From contig NW_021830015.1 in assembly GCF_006345805.1 (NCBI RefSeq), positions 1 to 5,550 on the forward strand: 5,550 nt of DNA, read 5' to 3'. The translations under genes were made by a program, and so were the position numbers. A model generated the notes under the pieces. It worked only from the letters and a program-made list of their open reading frames with translations, made no database searches and was not told where the DNA came from. This document shows, in pieces, positions 1 through 5,550 of this stretch (position 1 is the first letter of the stretch; every line of letters begins with the position of its first letter). The stretch is from Octopus sinensis. Its lineage: Eukaryota.

Positions 1-46
1 TGTGCATATATATGTATGTGTGCGTGTGCGAGCGTGCGTGTGTGTG
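1..46. repeat. Compound (TA)/(TG)/(CG) microsatellite, truncated by window edge
   Basis: Directly visible dinucleotide runs: tgtgcatatatatgtatgtgtgcgtgtgcgagcgtgcgtgtgtgtg. Confidence 0.85.
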
Positions 47-728
47 TCTTACAACTCCAAATATCAAGAACTACAATTATTTTTAGAAAATCAATTGCGG
101 AAACTATGAAATATAACTACTACAACATATATAGAAAGATTAAATAGAGCGACAGAAGTATTATTAATACTAAAAGTTAAGACATTCACCACGTTAAAGT
201 GGATGTTGCAATATTTACTCAGAGAGAAAACTCTCATATGGTCATTTGGTGCTTAAAAGCACATCATAGCTATTGCCAGCAACAGACTCTCACCGCTACT
301 TCCGCTGACCTAACTACCAGATCACGTGATTTCGGCTTATTTTGACCTTGTACTCGTTCACCTTTCTGAGCATATTTGTTCATATGACTATCTATGGCGT
401 TACTGAAAACTTTTTTTTATGAAGTAAAATAGTTGAAATATCGACGCGGTTATCATCAAATCCTAGTTTTTTTTTAATGCTCGACTATAAATACTCCTGT
501 TTGTATTATTCGCTTACACAATTAGTGCAGAAATGAGCAGAAATGGTTCTGCGATGATTGGAAGTATAAATAAAACTTACAAGAAGAAGGAAGTTGAAAA
601 CATAGTAAGAACCTCGTTCACTGATAAAATAATTTGTTTGTTTCTGACTAAGTGCAAAAGAGAAAATGTGGTGTCGCTGGATATACTCAGGTCCTCCAAA
701 TATTATAAGAACGAAGGCTGGAATTTAC

Positions 729-786
729 CTTGAGATAGAAACCCACATTTGCTGTTGGTTGCGTTTGCCACCAGGTTCGTCTTCTA
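729..786 (-). other. Possible 58-nt internal exon of an unidentified host gene
   Basis: Minus strand reads ttatcttcgtttcAG | TAGAAGACG...ATCTCAAG | GTaaat: pyrimidine-rich acceptor, AAG/GTAAAT donor, GC-richer than its flanks, two open frames (EDEPGGKRNQQQMWVSIS or RRRTWWQTQPTANVGFYLK). No homology recognised. Confidence 0.25.
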
Positions 787-867
787 CTGAAACGAAGATA
801 ATTTCAATCAATCAAAAGTTATTTTTGATTTTATATACTTTTTATGTGTTTATTTCGAAGCTGGTAA

Positions 868-1011
868 TATATATGTATATATGTATGCATATAGGTAGGT
901 GCATATATATACATATATATATATAGATATATATATATATATGGTGTGTTGTGTGTGGTGGGTTGTGTGTGTGTGTGTGTTGTGTGTGTGTGTGTGTGTG
1001 TGTGTGTGGTA

Positions 1012-1043
<32 letters not shown>

Positions 1044-1079
1044 CGCGCGTGTGTGTGTGTGTGTATATACACACATACA
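868..1079. repeat. Compound microsatellite (TA)n-(TG)n-(CG)n-(CA)n
   Basis: Visible TA run to about 942, TG run 943-1063 with CG interruptions, short CA tail. It is the source of the HT/YI/VC ORFs. Confidence 0.95.
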
Positions 1080-1917
1080 CAGACATAACAGAAGTAAATA
1101 GACTTCCCCATAAAACATCGTTTTATGTTTATTCTAGTTCTAGCTTTATATTTTTCATTAATAGACATTTTTATGTTTCAAGTCCTATATGTGGCTATTT
1201 AATTATGCCACATACAAAAGAAGCCTTGGAACTGTCAGAATTTCAGAGGCCGCATTGTGGGGCATTCTGAAGGTGGACGTAGCGTAAAATCGCATAAAAA
1301 TAATCTTGGGATCCCGCTTTCTACAGTTAATAGAGTGATTGTGCAATTCTCTAGGGAGGAGAAGGAGTCCACATCGTCTCGCCCAGATCAACCAGGGCTC
1401 TCTGACAGGACCTTTCTCTTTGTTAAGAGAAGTGTGGAAGATAATCCTCGTTGCAAGGCTTCTAACATAGAAGAACAAGTTGATGTCAGTCCCAGAGCAG
1501 CTGTCAGGTATCTCCACAAACTTGGCTTCTATGGCAGAGCAGCTAACATCAAGCGGAGAAAAGATTGGCCAGTGAGATGGTGGAGAGACATTTGAGGACA
1601 CCGATGAGTTCAGACTTGCTGTATTTCTTGACAGTGGTTGAGTGTGGGTCTGTAGACTCTGTGATCAAGAATTTGATGTGAAGAGATTGCAGCCAACAAT
1701 GAAACACGACAGCTATTCTGTGATTGTCTGAGGAGTAACTTGGAGCCATGGTTGATGAGGGGTGATGGAGTGTGAGGGAAACAGAAACTCAGATAAATAT
1801 GTGTCCATATTGCAGAAACGACTCCTTCCTCTGCTAGCCAGTGGTGAAATGATTAAAGAAGACGCTTTATTTATGGTAGATGAGGCTCGTTGTCACACGG
1901 CTAAAATGACCCAAGAT
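1080..1917 (+). mobile_element. Decayed, 3'-truncated Tc1-family (IS630-Tc1-mariner) DNA transposon
   Basis: Transposase relic at 1205-1917. The putative left end CAGACATAACAGAAGTAAATAGAC starts where the microsatellite stops (Tc1 TIRs typically begin CAG after TA). No matching right TIR seen, so the left boundary is an inference. Confidence 0.8.
1205..1917 (+). pseudogene. Tc1-like transposase pseudogene (HTH region plus first two catalytic Asp motifs; Glu motif missing)
   Basis: Joined across frameshifts: [15 protein letters not shown] / RIVGHSEGG...[15 protein letters not shown] (paired-like HTH)...[22 protein letters not shown] / TDEFRL (D at 1603, cf. FSDESRF)...PTMKHDSYSVIV*G (cf. PTVKHGGGSVMVWG)...NSDKYVSIL...FMVDEARCHTAK (D at 1879, cf. 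FQQDNAPCHTAK). Four in-frame TGA stops in the catalytic region; no SPDLNPIE motif. Confidence 0.93.
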
Positions 1918-1924
1918 TTGTGTA

Positions 1925-2061
1925 TTAAGGCTACCATTGGTTTCATGTTAAGGAATAAATTCCACAATTATCAAGCCTATCACAAATCGAGAACACCGAT
2001 GTTTCCATGTGACAGGCTTGTGTTGAGGTGGTCCTTAACACAAAACCAATGGTAGCCTTAA
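1925..2061. mobile_element. Foldback / MITE-like element with nested inverted repeats
   Basis: Outer arms 1925-1954 and 2032-2061 are 28/30 complementary; inner arms 1972-1984 and 2008-2020 are 12/13. Ends read TTAA-GGCT...AGCC-TTAA. The inverted repeat is seen directly; MITE identity is inferred. Confidence 0.6.
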
Positions 2062-2071
2062 CACAAATAAA

Positions 2072-2133
2072 GTGTGTGTGTGTGTGTATGTGTGTGTGTG
2101 TATGTGTGTGTGCGTGTGTATGTATGTATGTAT

Positions 2134-2171
<38 letters not shown>

Positions 2172-2258
2172 TAATAAATAAAATATATGCATACATACAA
2201 ACATATATGTACGTACCTACATCTACATGTATATATACATGCAATATATAAATATATA
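2072..2258. repeat. Compound (TG)n-(TATG)n-(TA)n-(TACA)n microsatellite
   Basis: Directly visible runs. Confidence 0.95.
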
Positions 2259-2281
2259 CGTGAGTACAGGACACCACAACT

Positions 2282-2407
2282 AGACGTAGAACTCAACGAA
2301 AAACGAAAACGGAAAAAAAACCATTTTTTTACAACAGAAAAACAGAGACGTAGACTCAACGAGAAACGAAAACGGAAAAACCATTTTTTTACAACAGAAA
2401 AAAACAG
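2282..2407 (+). repeat. Tandem duplication of a 62-64 bp unit
   Basis: agacgtagaactcaacgaaaaacgaaaacggaaaaaaaaccatttttttacaacagaaaaacag (2282-2345) is repeated at 2346-2407, differing by one substitution and A-run length changes. Confidence 0.92.
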
Positions 2408-2435
2408 AGTACAGGAATACTACACAAGGAAAAAT

Positions 2436-2510
2436 CCCCTTCATCAGCTGTCACTAGTTCGATTCAAGCGTGTTTCGAAGGCAAGACAGAACACGACTCG
2501 CCAAACTAGT
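2436..2510 (-). ncRNA. Candidate hammerhead ribozyme with non-canonical strand order
   Basis: Minus-strand RNA: ACUAGUUUGGCGAGU-CGUG-UU^CUGUC-UUG-CCUUC-GAAA-CACG-CUUGAAUCGAACUAGU-GACAG-CUGAUGA-A-GGGG. Core CUGAUGA (2447-2441), GAAA (2476-2473), GUU triplet (2492-2490). Stem I CUGUC/GACAG, stem III CGUG/CACG, weak stem II GGGG/CUUC. Confidence 0.55.
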
Positions 2511-2826
2511 CCTTCCTGCGAGAGAATTAAAATAAAATTACCTCGCATAGGGGTAAAAACAAGCAAGAAAAAAATGTAACACAAACAGGACGTAAAAACG
2601 ATACAAATAAAACTACAAAATAAAATACAAGATAAAAATACAAGTACAAGAAAATACAATACGAGAAATAAAAATAAACAAGGAAAACAAACGAAAAGGC
2701 CATTTTCTGGCTTAGACGGAGGAGGTTCTGGCAGCGCATGGGAACACAAATGTGTGTCTTTACAGTTTGAAGGCCGCGTTTAAAAGGAAGTAGTTTTGGC
2801 TAGCAGTGACAAAGATGAGGAGGAAT

Positions 2827-2896
2827 GAGAGAGAGAGAGAGAGGAAGACAAGCGGCTGAGAGAGAGAGATGAGGAAGAGTGAGAGAGAGAGAGAGA
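2827..2896. repeat. Interrupted (GA)n microsatellite
   Basis: Three GA runs separated by short purine-rich spacers. Confidence 0.92.
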
Positions 2897-2994
2897 AGGG
2901 AAAGTAAAGCAAAGAGATAAGGAATTTCGCGTCATAATTATATATAAAACAGTACTGGGAGAATAAGAACGTAACGAAGCGAACGAATCGAATC

Positions 2995-3020
2995 TAGATA
3001 GATAGATAAATAGATAGATA
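2995..3020. repeat. (GATA)n tetranucleotide microsatellite
   Basis: tagatagatagataaatagatagata. Confidence 0.9.
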
Positions 3021-3048
3021 CAATATTATAGAATACAATTATAATTAT

Positions 3049-3110
3049 AATTAAGGCACAGACGCTACTATGCCTATACACTAGGCATGGTACCGTCTGT
3101 GCCCTTAATT
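3049..3110. repeat. 62-bp near-perfect hairpin (mini-foldback)
   Basis: aattaaggcacagacgctactatgccta-tacac-taggcatggtaccgtctgtgcccttaatt: 26 Watson-Crick pairs, 1 G-U pair, 1 mismatch, 1 bulge, 5-nt loop. Confidence 0.9.
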
Positions 3111-3313
3111 TATTATTAGAAAGAGATGCCAAATACGTCCAACCACTATAAATTTTACTTCAATATATACAAATTAAAAGCGGGAAAAGTGGACCGACAT
3201 AAAATTCGTAAAATAATTCAGATGGTTCTAGATTGATCAATTTCTGGATAAGTTTAATAATTCTTCCTTCGCCACTAGAACATATTAGGCGAAATAAATG
3301 AAAACATTTATCC

Positions 3314-3466
3314 ATGGTTGTGTGGTGGTAGCTTTCTTCCCAACCACATAGTTCCAAGTTCAGTACCACTGCATGGCACCTTAGGCAAGTGTCTTCTGCT
3401 ATAGCCTCGGGCCTACCAAAGCCTTGTGAGTGGATTTGGTAGATGGAAAATGAAAGAAGCCCGTAG
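3314..3466 (+). mobile_element. tRNA-derived CORE-type SINE, copy 1 (5' part only)
   Basis: Degenerate Pol III A box (tggttgtgtgg) and B box (agttcagtacc), CORE-like gcaccttaggcaagt. Aligns with copies 2 and 3. Resembles octopus OR-type SINEs (recalled, not searched). Confidence 0.88.
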
Positions 3467-3498
3467 TATATATATAATATATATATAATATATATTAT

Positions 3499-3562
<64 letters not shown>
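3467..3562. repeat. Imperfect (TA)n microsatellite
   Basis: 96 nt composed of A/T only. Confidence 0.97.
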
Positions 3563-3565
<3 letters not shown>

Positions 3566-3707
3566 TGGCATATGGTAAGTAGCTTGCTTACCAACACATG
3601 GTTCCGGGTTCAGTCCCACTGCGTGGAATCTTGGGAAAGTGTCTTCTACTATAGCCTCTGGCCGACCAAAGCCTTGTGTGTGGACGGAAATTGAAAGAAG
3701 CCTGTCG
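3563..3707 (+). mobile_element. tRNA-derived CORE-type SINE, copy 2 (5' part only)
   Basis: A box-like tggcatatgg, B box ggttcagtccc (3607-3617). Colinear with copy 1 but lacks 9 nt (tttggtaga). Confidence 0.88.
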
Positions 3708-3733
3708 TATATATGTATTATGTATATATGTAT

Positions 3734-3769
3734 ATCTACTCACAAGGCTTTGGTCACCCCAAGGCTATA
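3734..3769 (-). repeat. Exact 36-bp inverted copy of 3923-3958 (SINE copy 3 internal segment)
   Basis: atctactcacaaggctttggtcaccccaaggctata is the 36/36 reverse complement of tatagccttggggtgaccaaagccttgtgagtagat. Confidence 0.97.
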
Positions 3770-3837
3770 TATATATATATATATGATATGTGGTATGTTT
3801 GGTCTTCTGTCTGTCTCTGTATGTAAGTATGTATATG

Positions 3838-4201
3838 ATGGCTGTGTGGTAAGAAGCTTGCTTCGCAACTACATGGATCCGAGTACAGTCCCACTGCGTG
3901 GCACATTGAGCATGTCTTGTACTATAGCCTTGGGGTGACCAAAGCCTTGTGAGTAGATGAGATGGATGGAAACTGGAAGAAATCATCGCATGGATTTATA
4001 TCTATGTGTGTCTTTGTGTCTGTGTTTGTTCTCCTCCACCGCTTGACAACCAGTGTTGGTGCATTTATATCCCTGTGACCTAGCGGCTCGGCCCAAGACT
4101 TGGATACATTAAGTACTGGTTTTAAGAAAATAGGTACTGAGGTTAATTCATTCGACTGAAAATCCTTCAAGGTCTGATGACTGACGTAAGTAAAAGATAA
4201 A
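3838..4201 (+). mobile_element. tRNA-derived CORE-type SINE, copy 3 (near full length)
   Basis: A box tggctgtgtgg, degenerate B box (gagtacagtccc), shared body to about 3990, short TG-rich linker, then a 3' domain (about 4025-4190) ending in the A-rich tail gtaaaagataaa. Confidence 0.85.
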
Positions 4202-4214
4202 TTATAAAGTTATT

Positions 4215-4412
4215 GTATATATTTTATATATATATATATTTAAATGTATATGTGTATGTACATATGCATACATATATACGTATATGTATGTGTAGGTGCA
4301 CACAGTATACACTGGCACGTGCATACACACAGATGCACCCTTCCCCATATATATACAGATATATATGTATACATAGTGTTTATGTGCATACATATATGAA
4401 TATACATATACA
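4215..4412. repeat. Degenerate (TA)/(TG)/(CA) compound microsatellite
   Basis: Alternating purine-pyrimidine low-complexity sequence. Confidence 0.9.
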
Positions 4413-4479
4413 TAACAGAGATCGGCGAGGGATCAATAAGCAAGTGTATTTATTTGACGCTCAGAAAAAAATAGAAAAG

Positions 4480-4517
4480 TCCTTGACATTTCGAGTCTAC
4501 GCTCTTCGACACAAAGA
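4480..4517 (-). ncRNA. Degenerate minimal type I hammerhead ribozyme (PLE-type), probably inactive
   Basis: Minus RNA: UCUUU-GUGUCGA-A-GAGC-GUAG-ACUC-GAAA-UG-UC^AAGGA. Stem I UCUUU/AAGGA, stem II GAG/CUC, GAAA and GUC present. Core GUGUCGA departs from CUGANGA at two conserved positions. Confidence 0.5.
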
Positions 4518-4673
4518 AATGCAGAGAGAAAGCAAAAAAATGTGGAGAGAGGAAAAAAGTGTCAGAATTAATGGCTTCACATGTTGAGATGACCGGAATA
4601 AAGAGGCCGCTCGAGGGGAAAATAACAGTGATCGGCTGGACTTGGGTGCGCAAACGCACGTTTTTATATGAAA

Positions 4674-5440
4674 TGTGTGTGAGCGAACTTAAGCTTATGT
4701 AAGCCTGTGTGTTTGTATGGGAGCGTGTGTGTGTGCAAGTGTATTATTAAACACGTACATGCACTGTGAGGAGCGATGGGTTCCATGTATTTATGTGTGT
4801 ATGTGCGGACGTGTGTATCTATGAGGGAGTATGAGAGGATGTGTATGGTATGCGTGTATGGCGGGGGCTATCAGATGTGTGTGCACGCCTGCAAAAGCAT
4901 GAGCGTAGCAGCTAATGTGTGCGTGTGCGAGTAACGTGTGTATGTGTGTGTATTTGAGCATGAAATGTTTGTTTGTGTCTCAGGTATATGTGTGACACTA
5001 TAATGTACGTGTGTATTGTGTGTGTTTTTATGCGTGAATATTCTCTCTGTGTGCATATGCGTGTGTGTGTATGTGAACGAGTGTAGTCACTGTTATCAGT
5101 TGGAGTTTGTGTATGGAGCAGTTGGATCAAGTATGTGTGTATATGGAGTTGATATGCGTGATGTTCTGTGTCTGTGCATGTGTATGAGTAGTAAGGTGCT
5201 TTTATGTATGTGTTAGGTCATCCAGCATATATGTGTGTGTTGTACGGGAATGCATGGAGGAGCGAGGTGGGATAGGGGTGACGAGTGTTAGGAGTTTAAA
5301 GGTGTTGGGTGCTAATGTGTGTGGAGTAGGAAGGAGTGTGTGTGCATGTGCATGTGAGTGTATGTGGTGTGCGCATAATGGTGTGTGGTATGAATTAGGT
5401 GGTGTACAGGTAGAGAGGGAGAAGGTGAGAGGTGTGTGTG
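4674..5440. repeat. Long degenerate (TG)/G-rich low-complexity tract
   Basis: About 770 nt of eroded TG repeats with a G/T skew on the plus strand. Confidence 0.8.
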
Positions 5441-5459
5441 AACGTTTAAAGGGTTGATT

Positions 5460-5549
5460 TTAGATGAAGAGAGGCGACGAAGTAAGACTATTAGGAGCAG
5501 AGGAATGAAGACAGAATATCAACTATTCTTCTCGGCAGAGCCGGGAGTC
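5460..5549 (-). pseudogene. C-terminal remnant of a Penelope-like RT/GIY-YIG endonuclease ORF
   Basis: Minus frame reads DSRLCREE*LIFCLHSSAPNSLTSSPLFI*, resembling the PLE terminal motif R..RE..(W/L)I..L....P.GLN. One internal stop; only 30 codons visible; absent from the ORF track. Confidence 0.6.
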
Positions 5550-5550
5550 C

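Follow-up and report, generated by a model that had tools for sequence, protein, structure and literature searches.

A candidate hammerhead ribozyme with a split core and a non-circularly permuted strand order in octopus repeats and related retroelements

We analysed a 5,550-nt stretch of Octopus sinensis DNA (assembly GCF_006345805.1, contig NW_021830015.1, positions 1 to 5,550; hereafter the window) and found in it, from 2553 to 2436 on the minus strand, a candidate cis-acting hammerhead ribozyme that is carried by a high-copy repeat. Hammerheads are composed of three blocks, S, G and C, and the natural types SGC and CSG cleave where predicted (Eckert et al. 2023, PMC10085705). The window feature would have the reversed connectivity of these two types, with its chain opened between core positions A9 and G10.1, and would cleave in cis; we put the probability of this reading at about 0.7. 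The author of a first-pass annotation of the stretch knew of no description of the topology, but the strand order itself is already known as type SGC, for which cleavage has been demonstrated (PMC10085705). The novelty lies in where the chain breaks, between A9 and G10.1, and in the motif being part of retroelements in cellular genomes.

The strands of the core all lie on the minus strand, where the first-pass annotation had placed them. Read 5' to 3', block S (CGUG-U-U^CUGUC, 2495-2485) comprises the 5' strand of stem III (2495-2491), H17 (2490) and the 3' strand of stem I (2489-2485). A linker from stem I to stem II follows (2482-2484; 3 nt in the window and 3-4 nt in its lineage of close copies), and then block G (CCUUC-GAAA-CACG, 2481-2469), made up of the 3' strand of stem II (2481-2477), GAAA (2476-2473) and the 3' strand of stem III (2472-2469). 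Last comes GACAG-CUGAUGA (2452-2441), in which the 5' strand of stem I (2452-2448) leads into the core CUGAUGA (2447-2441). Stem I has 5 bp and stem III has 4 bp plus the A15.1-U16.1 pair, both in register; the core elements CUGANGA, GAAA and UH are all present, and stems I, II and III abut the core, stem II by way of an upstream strand described below. The order S-G-C (site, GAAA, CUGAUGA) is read directly and is no circular permutation of C-G-S, the order of types I, II and III. The annotation was thus right on the register, the strand order and the pseudoknotted core with a short linker between stems I and II, and its expected cleavage position agrees with the register of block S, from which we too would predict a cut after H17, between 2490 and 2489. 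Of the extent it gave, 2436 to 2510, the 3' limit stands, whereas the whole feature reaches 2553.

An S-G-C descriptor requiring stems I and III of at least 5 bp gave one match in 3000 dinucleotide shuffles of the window (both strands), and the same descriptor with the upstream stem II added gave none in 3000. Searched across the octopus genome, a pattern of the core and part of stem III had 1,380 matches against one for the reversed control, and by-eye sorting assigned 93 of the 100 matches listed (of the 1,380) to the window's lineage. The motif is also present in contigs of four public sequencing runs, from organisms coded A, B, C and D. As had been expected, models of types I to III miss it: Rfam returned no hammerhead match for the window at E<=10, and no match whatever for 20 related loci at E<=0.1. 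The triplet takes two forms in 36 close copies, GUU (20 copies) and GUC (16 copies); the GUU that had been noted as suboptimal is present in the window but is not on its own a feature of the family. Base 2466 is private to the window copy (1 of 36 sequences), and the stem III extension CGAG/CUUG that had been proposed depends on it.

For the window's lineage we aligned the window with 28 of 30 loci (29 sequences, three of them truncated); L083 and L086, which are not of this family, were dropped. Aligning the copies had been proposed as a check on the three stems, and it bears them out in part: stem I covaries in the lineage, as do two further helices (Pb and a tip helix), whereas stem II is invariant there. 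Pair 2486-2451 of stem I is U-A in 24 sequences, C-G in four and U-G in one.

The GAAA-side strand of stem II, CCUUC (2481-2477), had been paired by the first-pass annotation with AGGGG (2440-2436), downstream of CUGAUGA. We propose instead that its partner is GAAGG at 2511..2515 on the minus strand, with which it forms five Watson-Crick pairs, and that G2515 is G10.1. Within the lineage the upstream stem II is Watson-Crick in 25-28 of 29 sequences at each pair, three of the 29 being 5'-truncated. The two partners were compared with a core pattern that does not select for stem II, run on metagenome, viral and prokaryote collections; the counts that follow are among the matches listed. Of the metagenome matches, 44 of 121 have a stem I of at least 4 bp, as do 0 of 30 viral and 2 of 120 prokaryote ones. 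Forty of the listed metagenome matches have stem I together with sufficient flank; in 23 of these the upstream partner makes at least five Watson-Crick pairs and in 29 at least four, while a downstream partner of at least four pairs, G-U allowed, was found in one. Among matches that do not have stem I, five upstream pairs occur in 5 of 77 from metagenomes and 2 of 118 from prokaryotes. The scoring is able to detect a downstream stem II, because it picked up a true type SGC motif on a metagenome contig (locus L229, 1501-1565, minus strand), with a 5-bp downstream stem II and a tip helix.

When 45 matches were clustered at 75% identity and the best member of each of the 23 resulting clusters was scored, an upstream stem II of at least 4 bp was found in 20 of the 23. 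All 20 begin with a G opposite C11.1; the search pattern fixed C11.1 and left the facing G free. A downstream stem II was found in three clusters, two of which are the window's lineage. Across 18 aligned rows the upstream stem II reaches 80% pairing and shows 16 two-sided changes (equalled by 0 of 500 shuffles), as against 48.9% for the downstream stem II (equalled by 345 of 500), and a four-helix model is 89.7% paired with 89 two-sided changes. The annotated pairing of AGGGG with CCUUC is therefore probably wrong, since the GAAA-side strand pairs upstream across families and AGGGG closes another helix, P0; the downstream pairing is possible only in the window's lineage. There it is disfavoured because of better-supported competing helices and the homologous architecture elsewhere, rather than on covariation.

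P0 is formed by CCCCU (2549..2553) and AGGGG (2436..2440), the latter lying directly after A9, and is present in the minimum-energy fold (its 5' strand paired with 2440-2436). In the lineage each of its five pairs is Watson-Crick in 22-24 of 28-29 sequences, with no covariation. The hairpin Pb (2516..2548, stem 2548-2541 with 2523-2516) abuts both P0 and stem II, and it does covary (n = 29): pair 2546-2518 is G-C in 19 sequences and A-U in seven, 2544-2520 is G-C in 14, A-U in seven and A-C in seven, and 2542-2522 is G-C in 15 and A-U in 12. Position 2548, normally C, is A in the window copy, so that the junction pair of Pb is broken. An initial guess for P0, pairing 2528-2521 with 2440-2433, was rejected as rich in G-U pairs and in conflict with the covarying hairpin. 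A strict finder recovered the P0 and Pb junction in 13 of the 23 clusters.

The tips of stems I and II are tied together by the tip helix (2500..2510 with 2463-2453), the equivalent of helix 'I' of type SGC; in its 3' strand (2453..2463) base 2463 is private to the window copy, as is the nearby 2466. In the lineage, pair 2507-2456 is A-U in 24 sequences and G-C in four, 2505-2458 is U-A in 20 and C-G in six, and high-frequency variants that keep the pairing occur in the contigs of the four public sequencing runs. Between the tip helix and stem III lies an internal loop (2496..2499 facing 2468-2464) that carries tandem GA/GA in the family and is irregular in the window. A kink-turn consists of a 3-nt bulge followed by tandem G-A and A-G pairs; this signature is found in 13 of the 23 clusters as compared with 3 of 119 controls, and the loop of the window's lineage has the tandem GA but fails the strict test. 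A further relative (L368, L358) has the stem II and P0 of the lineage with entirely different stems I and III.

Folded to minimum energy, 2560-2428 forms P0, Pb, the tip helix and stem III (z -2.16; 5 of 200 shuffles), and what is left unpaired is exactly GAAGG and GACAG-CUGAUGA, the complements of the stem III loop. In a hammerhead, A9 is joined to 10.1 directly or through 1-2 nt. Here it appears not to be, and a downstream stem II fails in 39 of the 40 listed metagenome matches. Because the stem II strand lies upstream and the bases after CUGAUGA close P0 beside the covarying Pb, we consider it very probable that the chain is opened between A9 and G10.1, with P0 closing the structure and Pb completing a four-way junction.

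Under the split-core reading the RNA would run, 5' to 3', through P0, Pb, the stem II strand from G10.1, the tip helix, the cleavage strand, the short linker, the GAAA strand, the tip helix again, the stem I strand, CUGAUGA and P0. A nested scaffold of P0, Pb, the tip helix and stem III would fold first, and the loop of stem III would then dock on two single strands of the multiloop, giving stems I and II. A9 would run into P0 and Pb into G10.1, with P0 and Pb stacked on each other, so that the A9-G12 pair could stack on G10.1-C11.1 as in any hammerhead, in the usual geometry of a four-way junction; as this stacking stays possible, the active site need not change. A kink-turn-like loop would bend stem III back and let the tip helix reach the ends of stems I and II. 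Cleavage after H17 (2490/2489) would leave a 2',3'-cyclic phosphate and a 5'-OH, and its role could be the release of unit-length or circularisable RNA from read-through transcripts of tandem retroelement copies.

Judged by its strands and pairings, the same design recurs in three further repeat families of the octopus genome, in cephalopod Naiads and over the stop codon of long interspersed nuclear elements (LINEs) with a restriction-like endonuclease (RLE). One octopus family (L091-L120), which the genome-wide core pattern also picked up, is old, with 57 matches to its own motif and 30 loci aligned. It has good stems I and III; nothing after CUGAUGA pairs with its GAAA-side strand, which has a perfect upstream partner. 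Its count of stem I covariation is uninformative, the copies being old and CpG-decayed. By eye, the DNA upstream of this family resembles the end of an RLE-type LINE open reading frame (ORF). Another octopus family (L292-L316, for example L300 at about 1500-1700), first seen beside loci L080 and L090, is short, young and split-core; among 1,915 candidates in the genome, 22 of 25 loci were aligned, and these have an upstream stem II, an AUC triplet, a 13-bp P0 and the kink-turn signature.

Eight Naiad families have been marked 'HHR_half_core', with no canonical ribozyme and no structure proposed in the accessible text (Craig et al. 2021, PMC8557442). Like the window feature, these 'half-core' Naiads have both core halves in a form unfit for descriptors and a (TA)n target, as far as that text describes them. 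The ends of Octopus Naiads have the same split-core architecture as the window, with an upstream stem II, and the Octopus Naiad consensus motif, allowing at most one mismatch, occurs at 645 places in the genome (control 0), of which 20 were aligned. Further Naiads were read by eye in the last 200-600 nt of the consensus sequences in the supplement of PMC8557442. The Euprymna Naiad is nearly split-core (6 bp in stem I, 7 bp each in stem III and the tip helix, and 4 of 5 pairs in stem II), and four 'half-core' Naiads in the accessible File S5, Naiad_Parc, Naiad-3_Nbra, Naiad_Hpol and Naiad_Smim (Pristionchus, Nippostrongylus-3, Heligmosomoides and Stegodyphus), read as complete type CSG, with 4-6 bp in stems I and II, at least 5 bp in stem III and 9-13 bp in the tip helices. 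For Naiad-3_Dst, reading 600 nt of the consensus end by eye gave no clear motif.

At L170 and L175, both from metagenomes, the motif overlaps the final codons and the stop of a non-LTR (LTR, long terminal repeat) retrotransposon ORF (zf-RVT), with a second copy of that element beginning close behind. A cut at this position would free unit RNAs from tandem read-through. The motif likewise follows the end of such a LINE ORF in L164 and L219. The hosts have an RLE-like C-terminus, read by eye, and from its motif we would tentatively assign the LINE hosts of the related copies to the HERO clade. HERO is one of five RLE clades according to the accessible text of PMC4640811. Seven eukaryote-looking marine contigs (L171, L176, L180, L181, L195, L211 and L230) have the upstream stem II 27 nt away and P0, with no Pb; in L176, L181 and L211 the P0 comes with a 3-4-nt linker. 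Some copies in this marine group have lost the upstream strand. In the LINE-associated group (L158, L164, L168, L175, L204, L226, L248, L269, L271 and L421) UGAUCA or a close variant is often present in the Pb loop, which suggests a tertiary or protein contact. L421, one of the two listed prokaryote matches with stem I, has the split-core motif in full; its 2.6-kb contig was binned in a bacterial metagenome-assembled genome and is probably host DNA.

We hold at somewhat better than even odds, taken as a whole, a broader reading in which an active, kink-turn-folded hammerhead with a split core is widespread in eukaryotic retroelements and common to Penelope-like elements and RLE LINEs. On this broader reading the kink-turn could put cleavage under the control of an L7Ae-type or element-encoded protein. 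Together with the type CSG forms, the split core would account for the 'missing' ribozymes of Naiads, and non-circular permutations would be common in animal genomes.

The repeat that carries the window feature has a unit of about 860 nt, in which no ORF was found. Comparison with other copies places a near-complete monomer at 2166..2994 on the minus strand, with an internal 60-nt duplication (2282-2402) and a terminal (TA)n run (2138-2168). Searching the octopus genome at the DNA level yielded 2,957 first-look candidates; the 40 that were scored have 94-100% identity. The copies are 5'-truncated, form partial tandems or inversions, end in (TA)n and repeat a short tail at one end. Penelope-like insertions have been described with partial tandems, inversions and a terminal tail in the accessible text of PMC8557442, and the repeat has all of these together with insertion at (TA)n; from this copy structure we suggest that it is a non-autonomous Penelope-like element. 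Each unit carries one hammerhead, which is not of type I, whereas non-LTR retrozymes carry a type I hammerhead per tandem unit. The repeat shares no DNA similarity with the aligned Naiad loci. No autonomous partner with shared ends was found among 30 + 30 endonuclease loci or 20 Naiad-type loci examined. The candidates rejected were a family of GIY-YIG remnants (30 of 150 loci fetched), which has a canonical type I hammerhead and no DNA in common with the repeat; Pfam GIY-YIG loci (30 of 147), which have no common ends; and the DNA upstream of a relative in L293, which is the 3' end of another LINE. Relatives of the repeat have inserted independently into the (TA)n tails of Pfam GIY-YIG loci. 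A Pfam search of two of the remnants gave no match.

Several points weigh against the split-core reading. Stem II and P0 are invariant within the window's lineage, so covariation is no proof there, and the pairs of the annotated 4-bp stem II are kept in the same 29 sequences (C-G in 29, U-G in 28, U-G in 29 and C-G in 26). As the search patterns fixed the core bases and part of stem III, conservation of the core and of stem III is not independent evidence; the 18 alignment rows, for their part, were picked by hand after the matches had been viewed. In 14 of these 18 rows a G is kept two bases after A9, so that in certain families the downstream strand might supply G10.1. Six of the 30 viral matches that do not have stem I (L377-L406) reach five upstream pairs, although these are probably redundant chance matches. 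Given its private changes at 2548, 2466 and 2463, the window copy itself may be weakened or dead. No active hammerhead is known in which a helix separates A9 from G10.1; block C has been assumed to be uninterruptible, no insertion of more than 1-2 nt being known (PMC10085705), and one Penelope hammerhead needed protein for cleavage, which was dispensable for insertion in vitro, according to the accessible text of PMC11167929. The 5' ends of copies joined to (TA)n, counted on the strand that has no overlap inflation, fall 18 times in a zone 5' of the site, 102 times across it and 58 times in a zone 3' of it. These counts lean the way one would expect of templates that start at the cut, but carry little weight, as their anchors are not matched, the subfamily of the window itself being left out by one of them, and as stalling of the reverse transcriptase at a hairpin or TA microhomology can explain the pattern equally well.

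The feature might instead be a hammerhead-derived fold that serves as an OFF state or a non-catalytic protein-binding element (for example for reverse transcriptase recognition in a 3' untranslated region), which cleaves never or only after rearrangement. The covalent link between A9 and G10.1 is universal in tested hammerheads (PMC10085705), the motif lies in 3' untranslated regions whose ends must survive for insertion, and the dispensability of Penelope cleavage in vitro reported in the accessible part of PMC11167929 would fit such a role; in the Naiad forms and those of the old octopus family the base before the upstream G could moreover pair into GAAA. We nevertheless think it unlikely, as a cleavable UH triplet, A15.1-U16.1 and G10.1-C11.1 stay in exact register across families that differ in every stem, as the upstream helix ends at C11.1 in the window's lineage and does not invade the core, and as families found by means other than the core pattern (the short, young octopus family and Naiad) keep the full core. 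An ordinary type SGC as drawn in the first-pass annotation, with AGGGG pairing with CCUUC through two G-U pairs and an extra A after A9, appears quite improbable. It fails in the other families (1 of 40 listed metagenome matches; 345 of 500 shuffles), and both of its strands have better partners, AGGGG a perfect one at 2553-2549 that abuts the covarying hairpin and CCUUC a perfect upstream one of 5-6 bp. This pairing is nevertheless possible in 25 of 31 rows of the own-genome pattern loci and nearly invariant in the 29-sequence lineage, SGC alignments too show an extra base after CUGAUGA and a 3-nt linker, and the same pattern did pick up the true SGC motif of L229.

Partial tandem copies, the head-to-tail arrays at L170 and L175, and minimal Penelope hammerheads, which are thought in the accessible text of PMC4209133 to work as dimers, could be taken to mean that the active form is a dimer or a trans complex between neighbouring tandem copies. 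The strand-swapped dimer offered in the annotation is not needed to explain the data, however: every helix is of sufficient length and closes inside a single 118-nt unit, stem III is neither palindromic nor minimal, and monomeric SGC and CSG RNAs cleave (PMC10085705), so that we see little likelihood in a dimer. A chance arrangement amplified with the repeat is hardly credible. High copy number alone is no proof of structure, but the shuffles gave 1 and 0 matches in 3000, stem I of at least 4 bp is found in 44 of 121 listed metagenome matches as against 2 of 120 prokaryote and 0 of 30 viral ones, and compensatory changes are seen along with recurrence in unrelated families.

If the split-core reading is true, it breaks the working rule of three indivisible hammerhead blocks in six possible orders, and the catalytic core has a site that accepts whole helices, which would be useful in ribozyme engineering. 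It would also place non-circularly permuted ribozymes in cellular genomes at thousands of copies, explain the apparent lack of ribozymes in Naiad elements and provide a ribozyme for a LINE group where the literature searches had turned up none. The split-core descriptor can be applied directly to repeat libraries.

Other features were seen in the window and in the loci fetched. At 4480-4512 on the minus strand, within another repeat at about 4410-4620, is a second motif resembling a minimal type I hammerhead, its first core strand being altered. A decayed transposase remnant at about 1240-2050, recognised by eye, is presumably Tc1/mariner-like. Three copies of a SINE-like (short interspersed nuclear element-like) repeat lie at 3300-3460, 3560-3710 and 3840-3990, with a 36-nt perfect inverted piece of the third copy at 3734-3769, and an imperfect long hairpin with weak sub-threshold matches to microRNA models lies at 3037-3122, just outside the 5' end of the repeat that carries the split-core feature. 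L122-L150 are an ORF-bearing Penelope-like family, which we take to be Hydra-like, with a canonical type I hammerhead that has an extra U after CUGAUGA and lies about 150-230 nt past the endonuclease ORF. A young Penelope-like family (L353, L354, L366, L373 and L375), presumably Neptune-like, has a minimal type I hammerhead near its 3' end, with the U3-A8 variant of the core.

In our literature search, whose coverage left out most subscription journals as well as bioRxiv supplements, we found no hammerhead with helices between A9 and G10.1, no SGC or CSG form in retroelements and nothing that joins HERO with hammerheads. The accessible parts of PMC10162972 and PMC3088659 contain no such variant, and that of PMC13725137 cites 'additional helices' and gives no detail. 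The nearest retroelement counterparts are the minimal type I hammerheads of Penelope-like elements and non-LTR retrozymes, which resemble the window form in lying in a terminal repeat or a tandem non-autonomous element, in G10.1-C11.1 and in tolerance at 9/10.1 (accessible texts of PMC4209133 and bioRxiv 10.64898/2026.07.22.740005). Penelope hammerheads tolerate a one-base insert at 9/10.1, and their proposed role is the release of unit RNAs from tandem read-through, as set out in the accessible text of PMC4209133. As those sources describe them, the minimal type I forms differ in having a palindromic stem III and are thought to be dimeric; the window form is non-circularly permuted, with a full stem III and six helices.

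The closest relatives in structure are types SGC and CSG, in which stems I and II are joined by a 3-nt linker and have their tips tied by a helix, and which come from metatranscriptomes and metagenomes, with none, bar one weak GCS case, in the genomes of known organisms (PMC10085705). A term search of the supplement of that paper gave no octopus, mollusc or metazoan entry. With type SGC (the HRIMA-1 motif and variants) the window feature has in common the order site-GAAA-CUGAUGA, the linker of about 3 nt, the tip helix, the canonical core and a double pseudoknot. It differs in that the stem II strand of type SGC directly follows CUGAUGA, whereas here it lies upstream, with P0 and Pb between A9 and G10.1, in that both strands of the tip helix connect to stem III, and in being part of a genomic retroelement, type SGC having come from metatranscriptomes alone (PMC10085705). 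A sharp bend in some SGC RNAs was noted as unexplained (PMC10085705); a kink-turn would supply it. The window feature would work like type SGC and yet is no member by definition, because block C (stem I strand-CUGAnGA-stem II strand) is split. Type CSG, represented by two metagenome sequences (PMC10085705), has the same circle of connections (tip helix strand, stem I strand, CUGAUGA, stem II strand, tip helix strand, S, G) and, unlike the window feature, keeps block C intact. Types CSG, SGC and GCS may thus be viewed as three openings of one circle, of which the window form would be a fourth, made inside the core.
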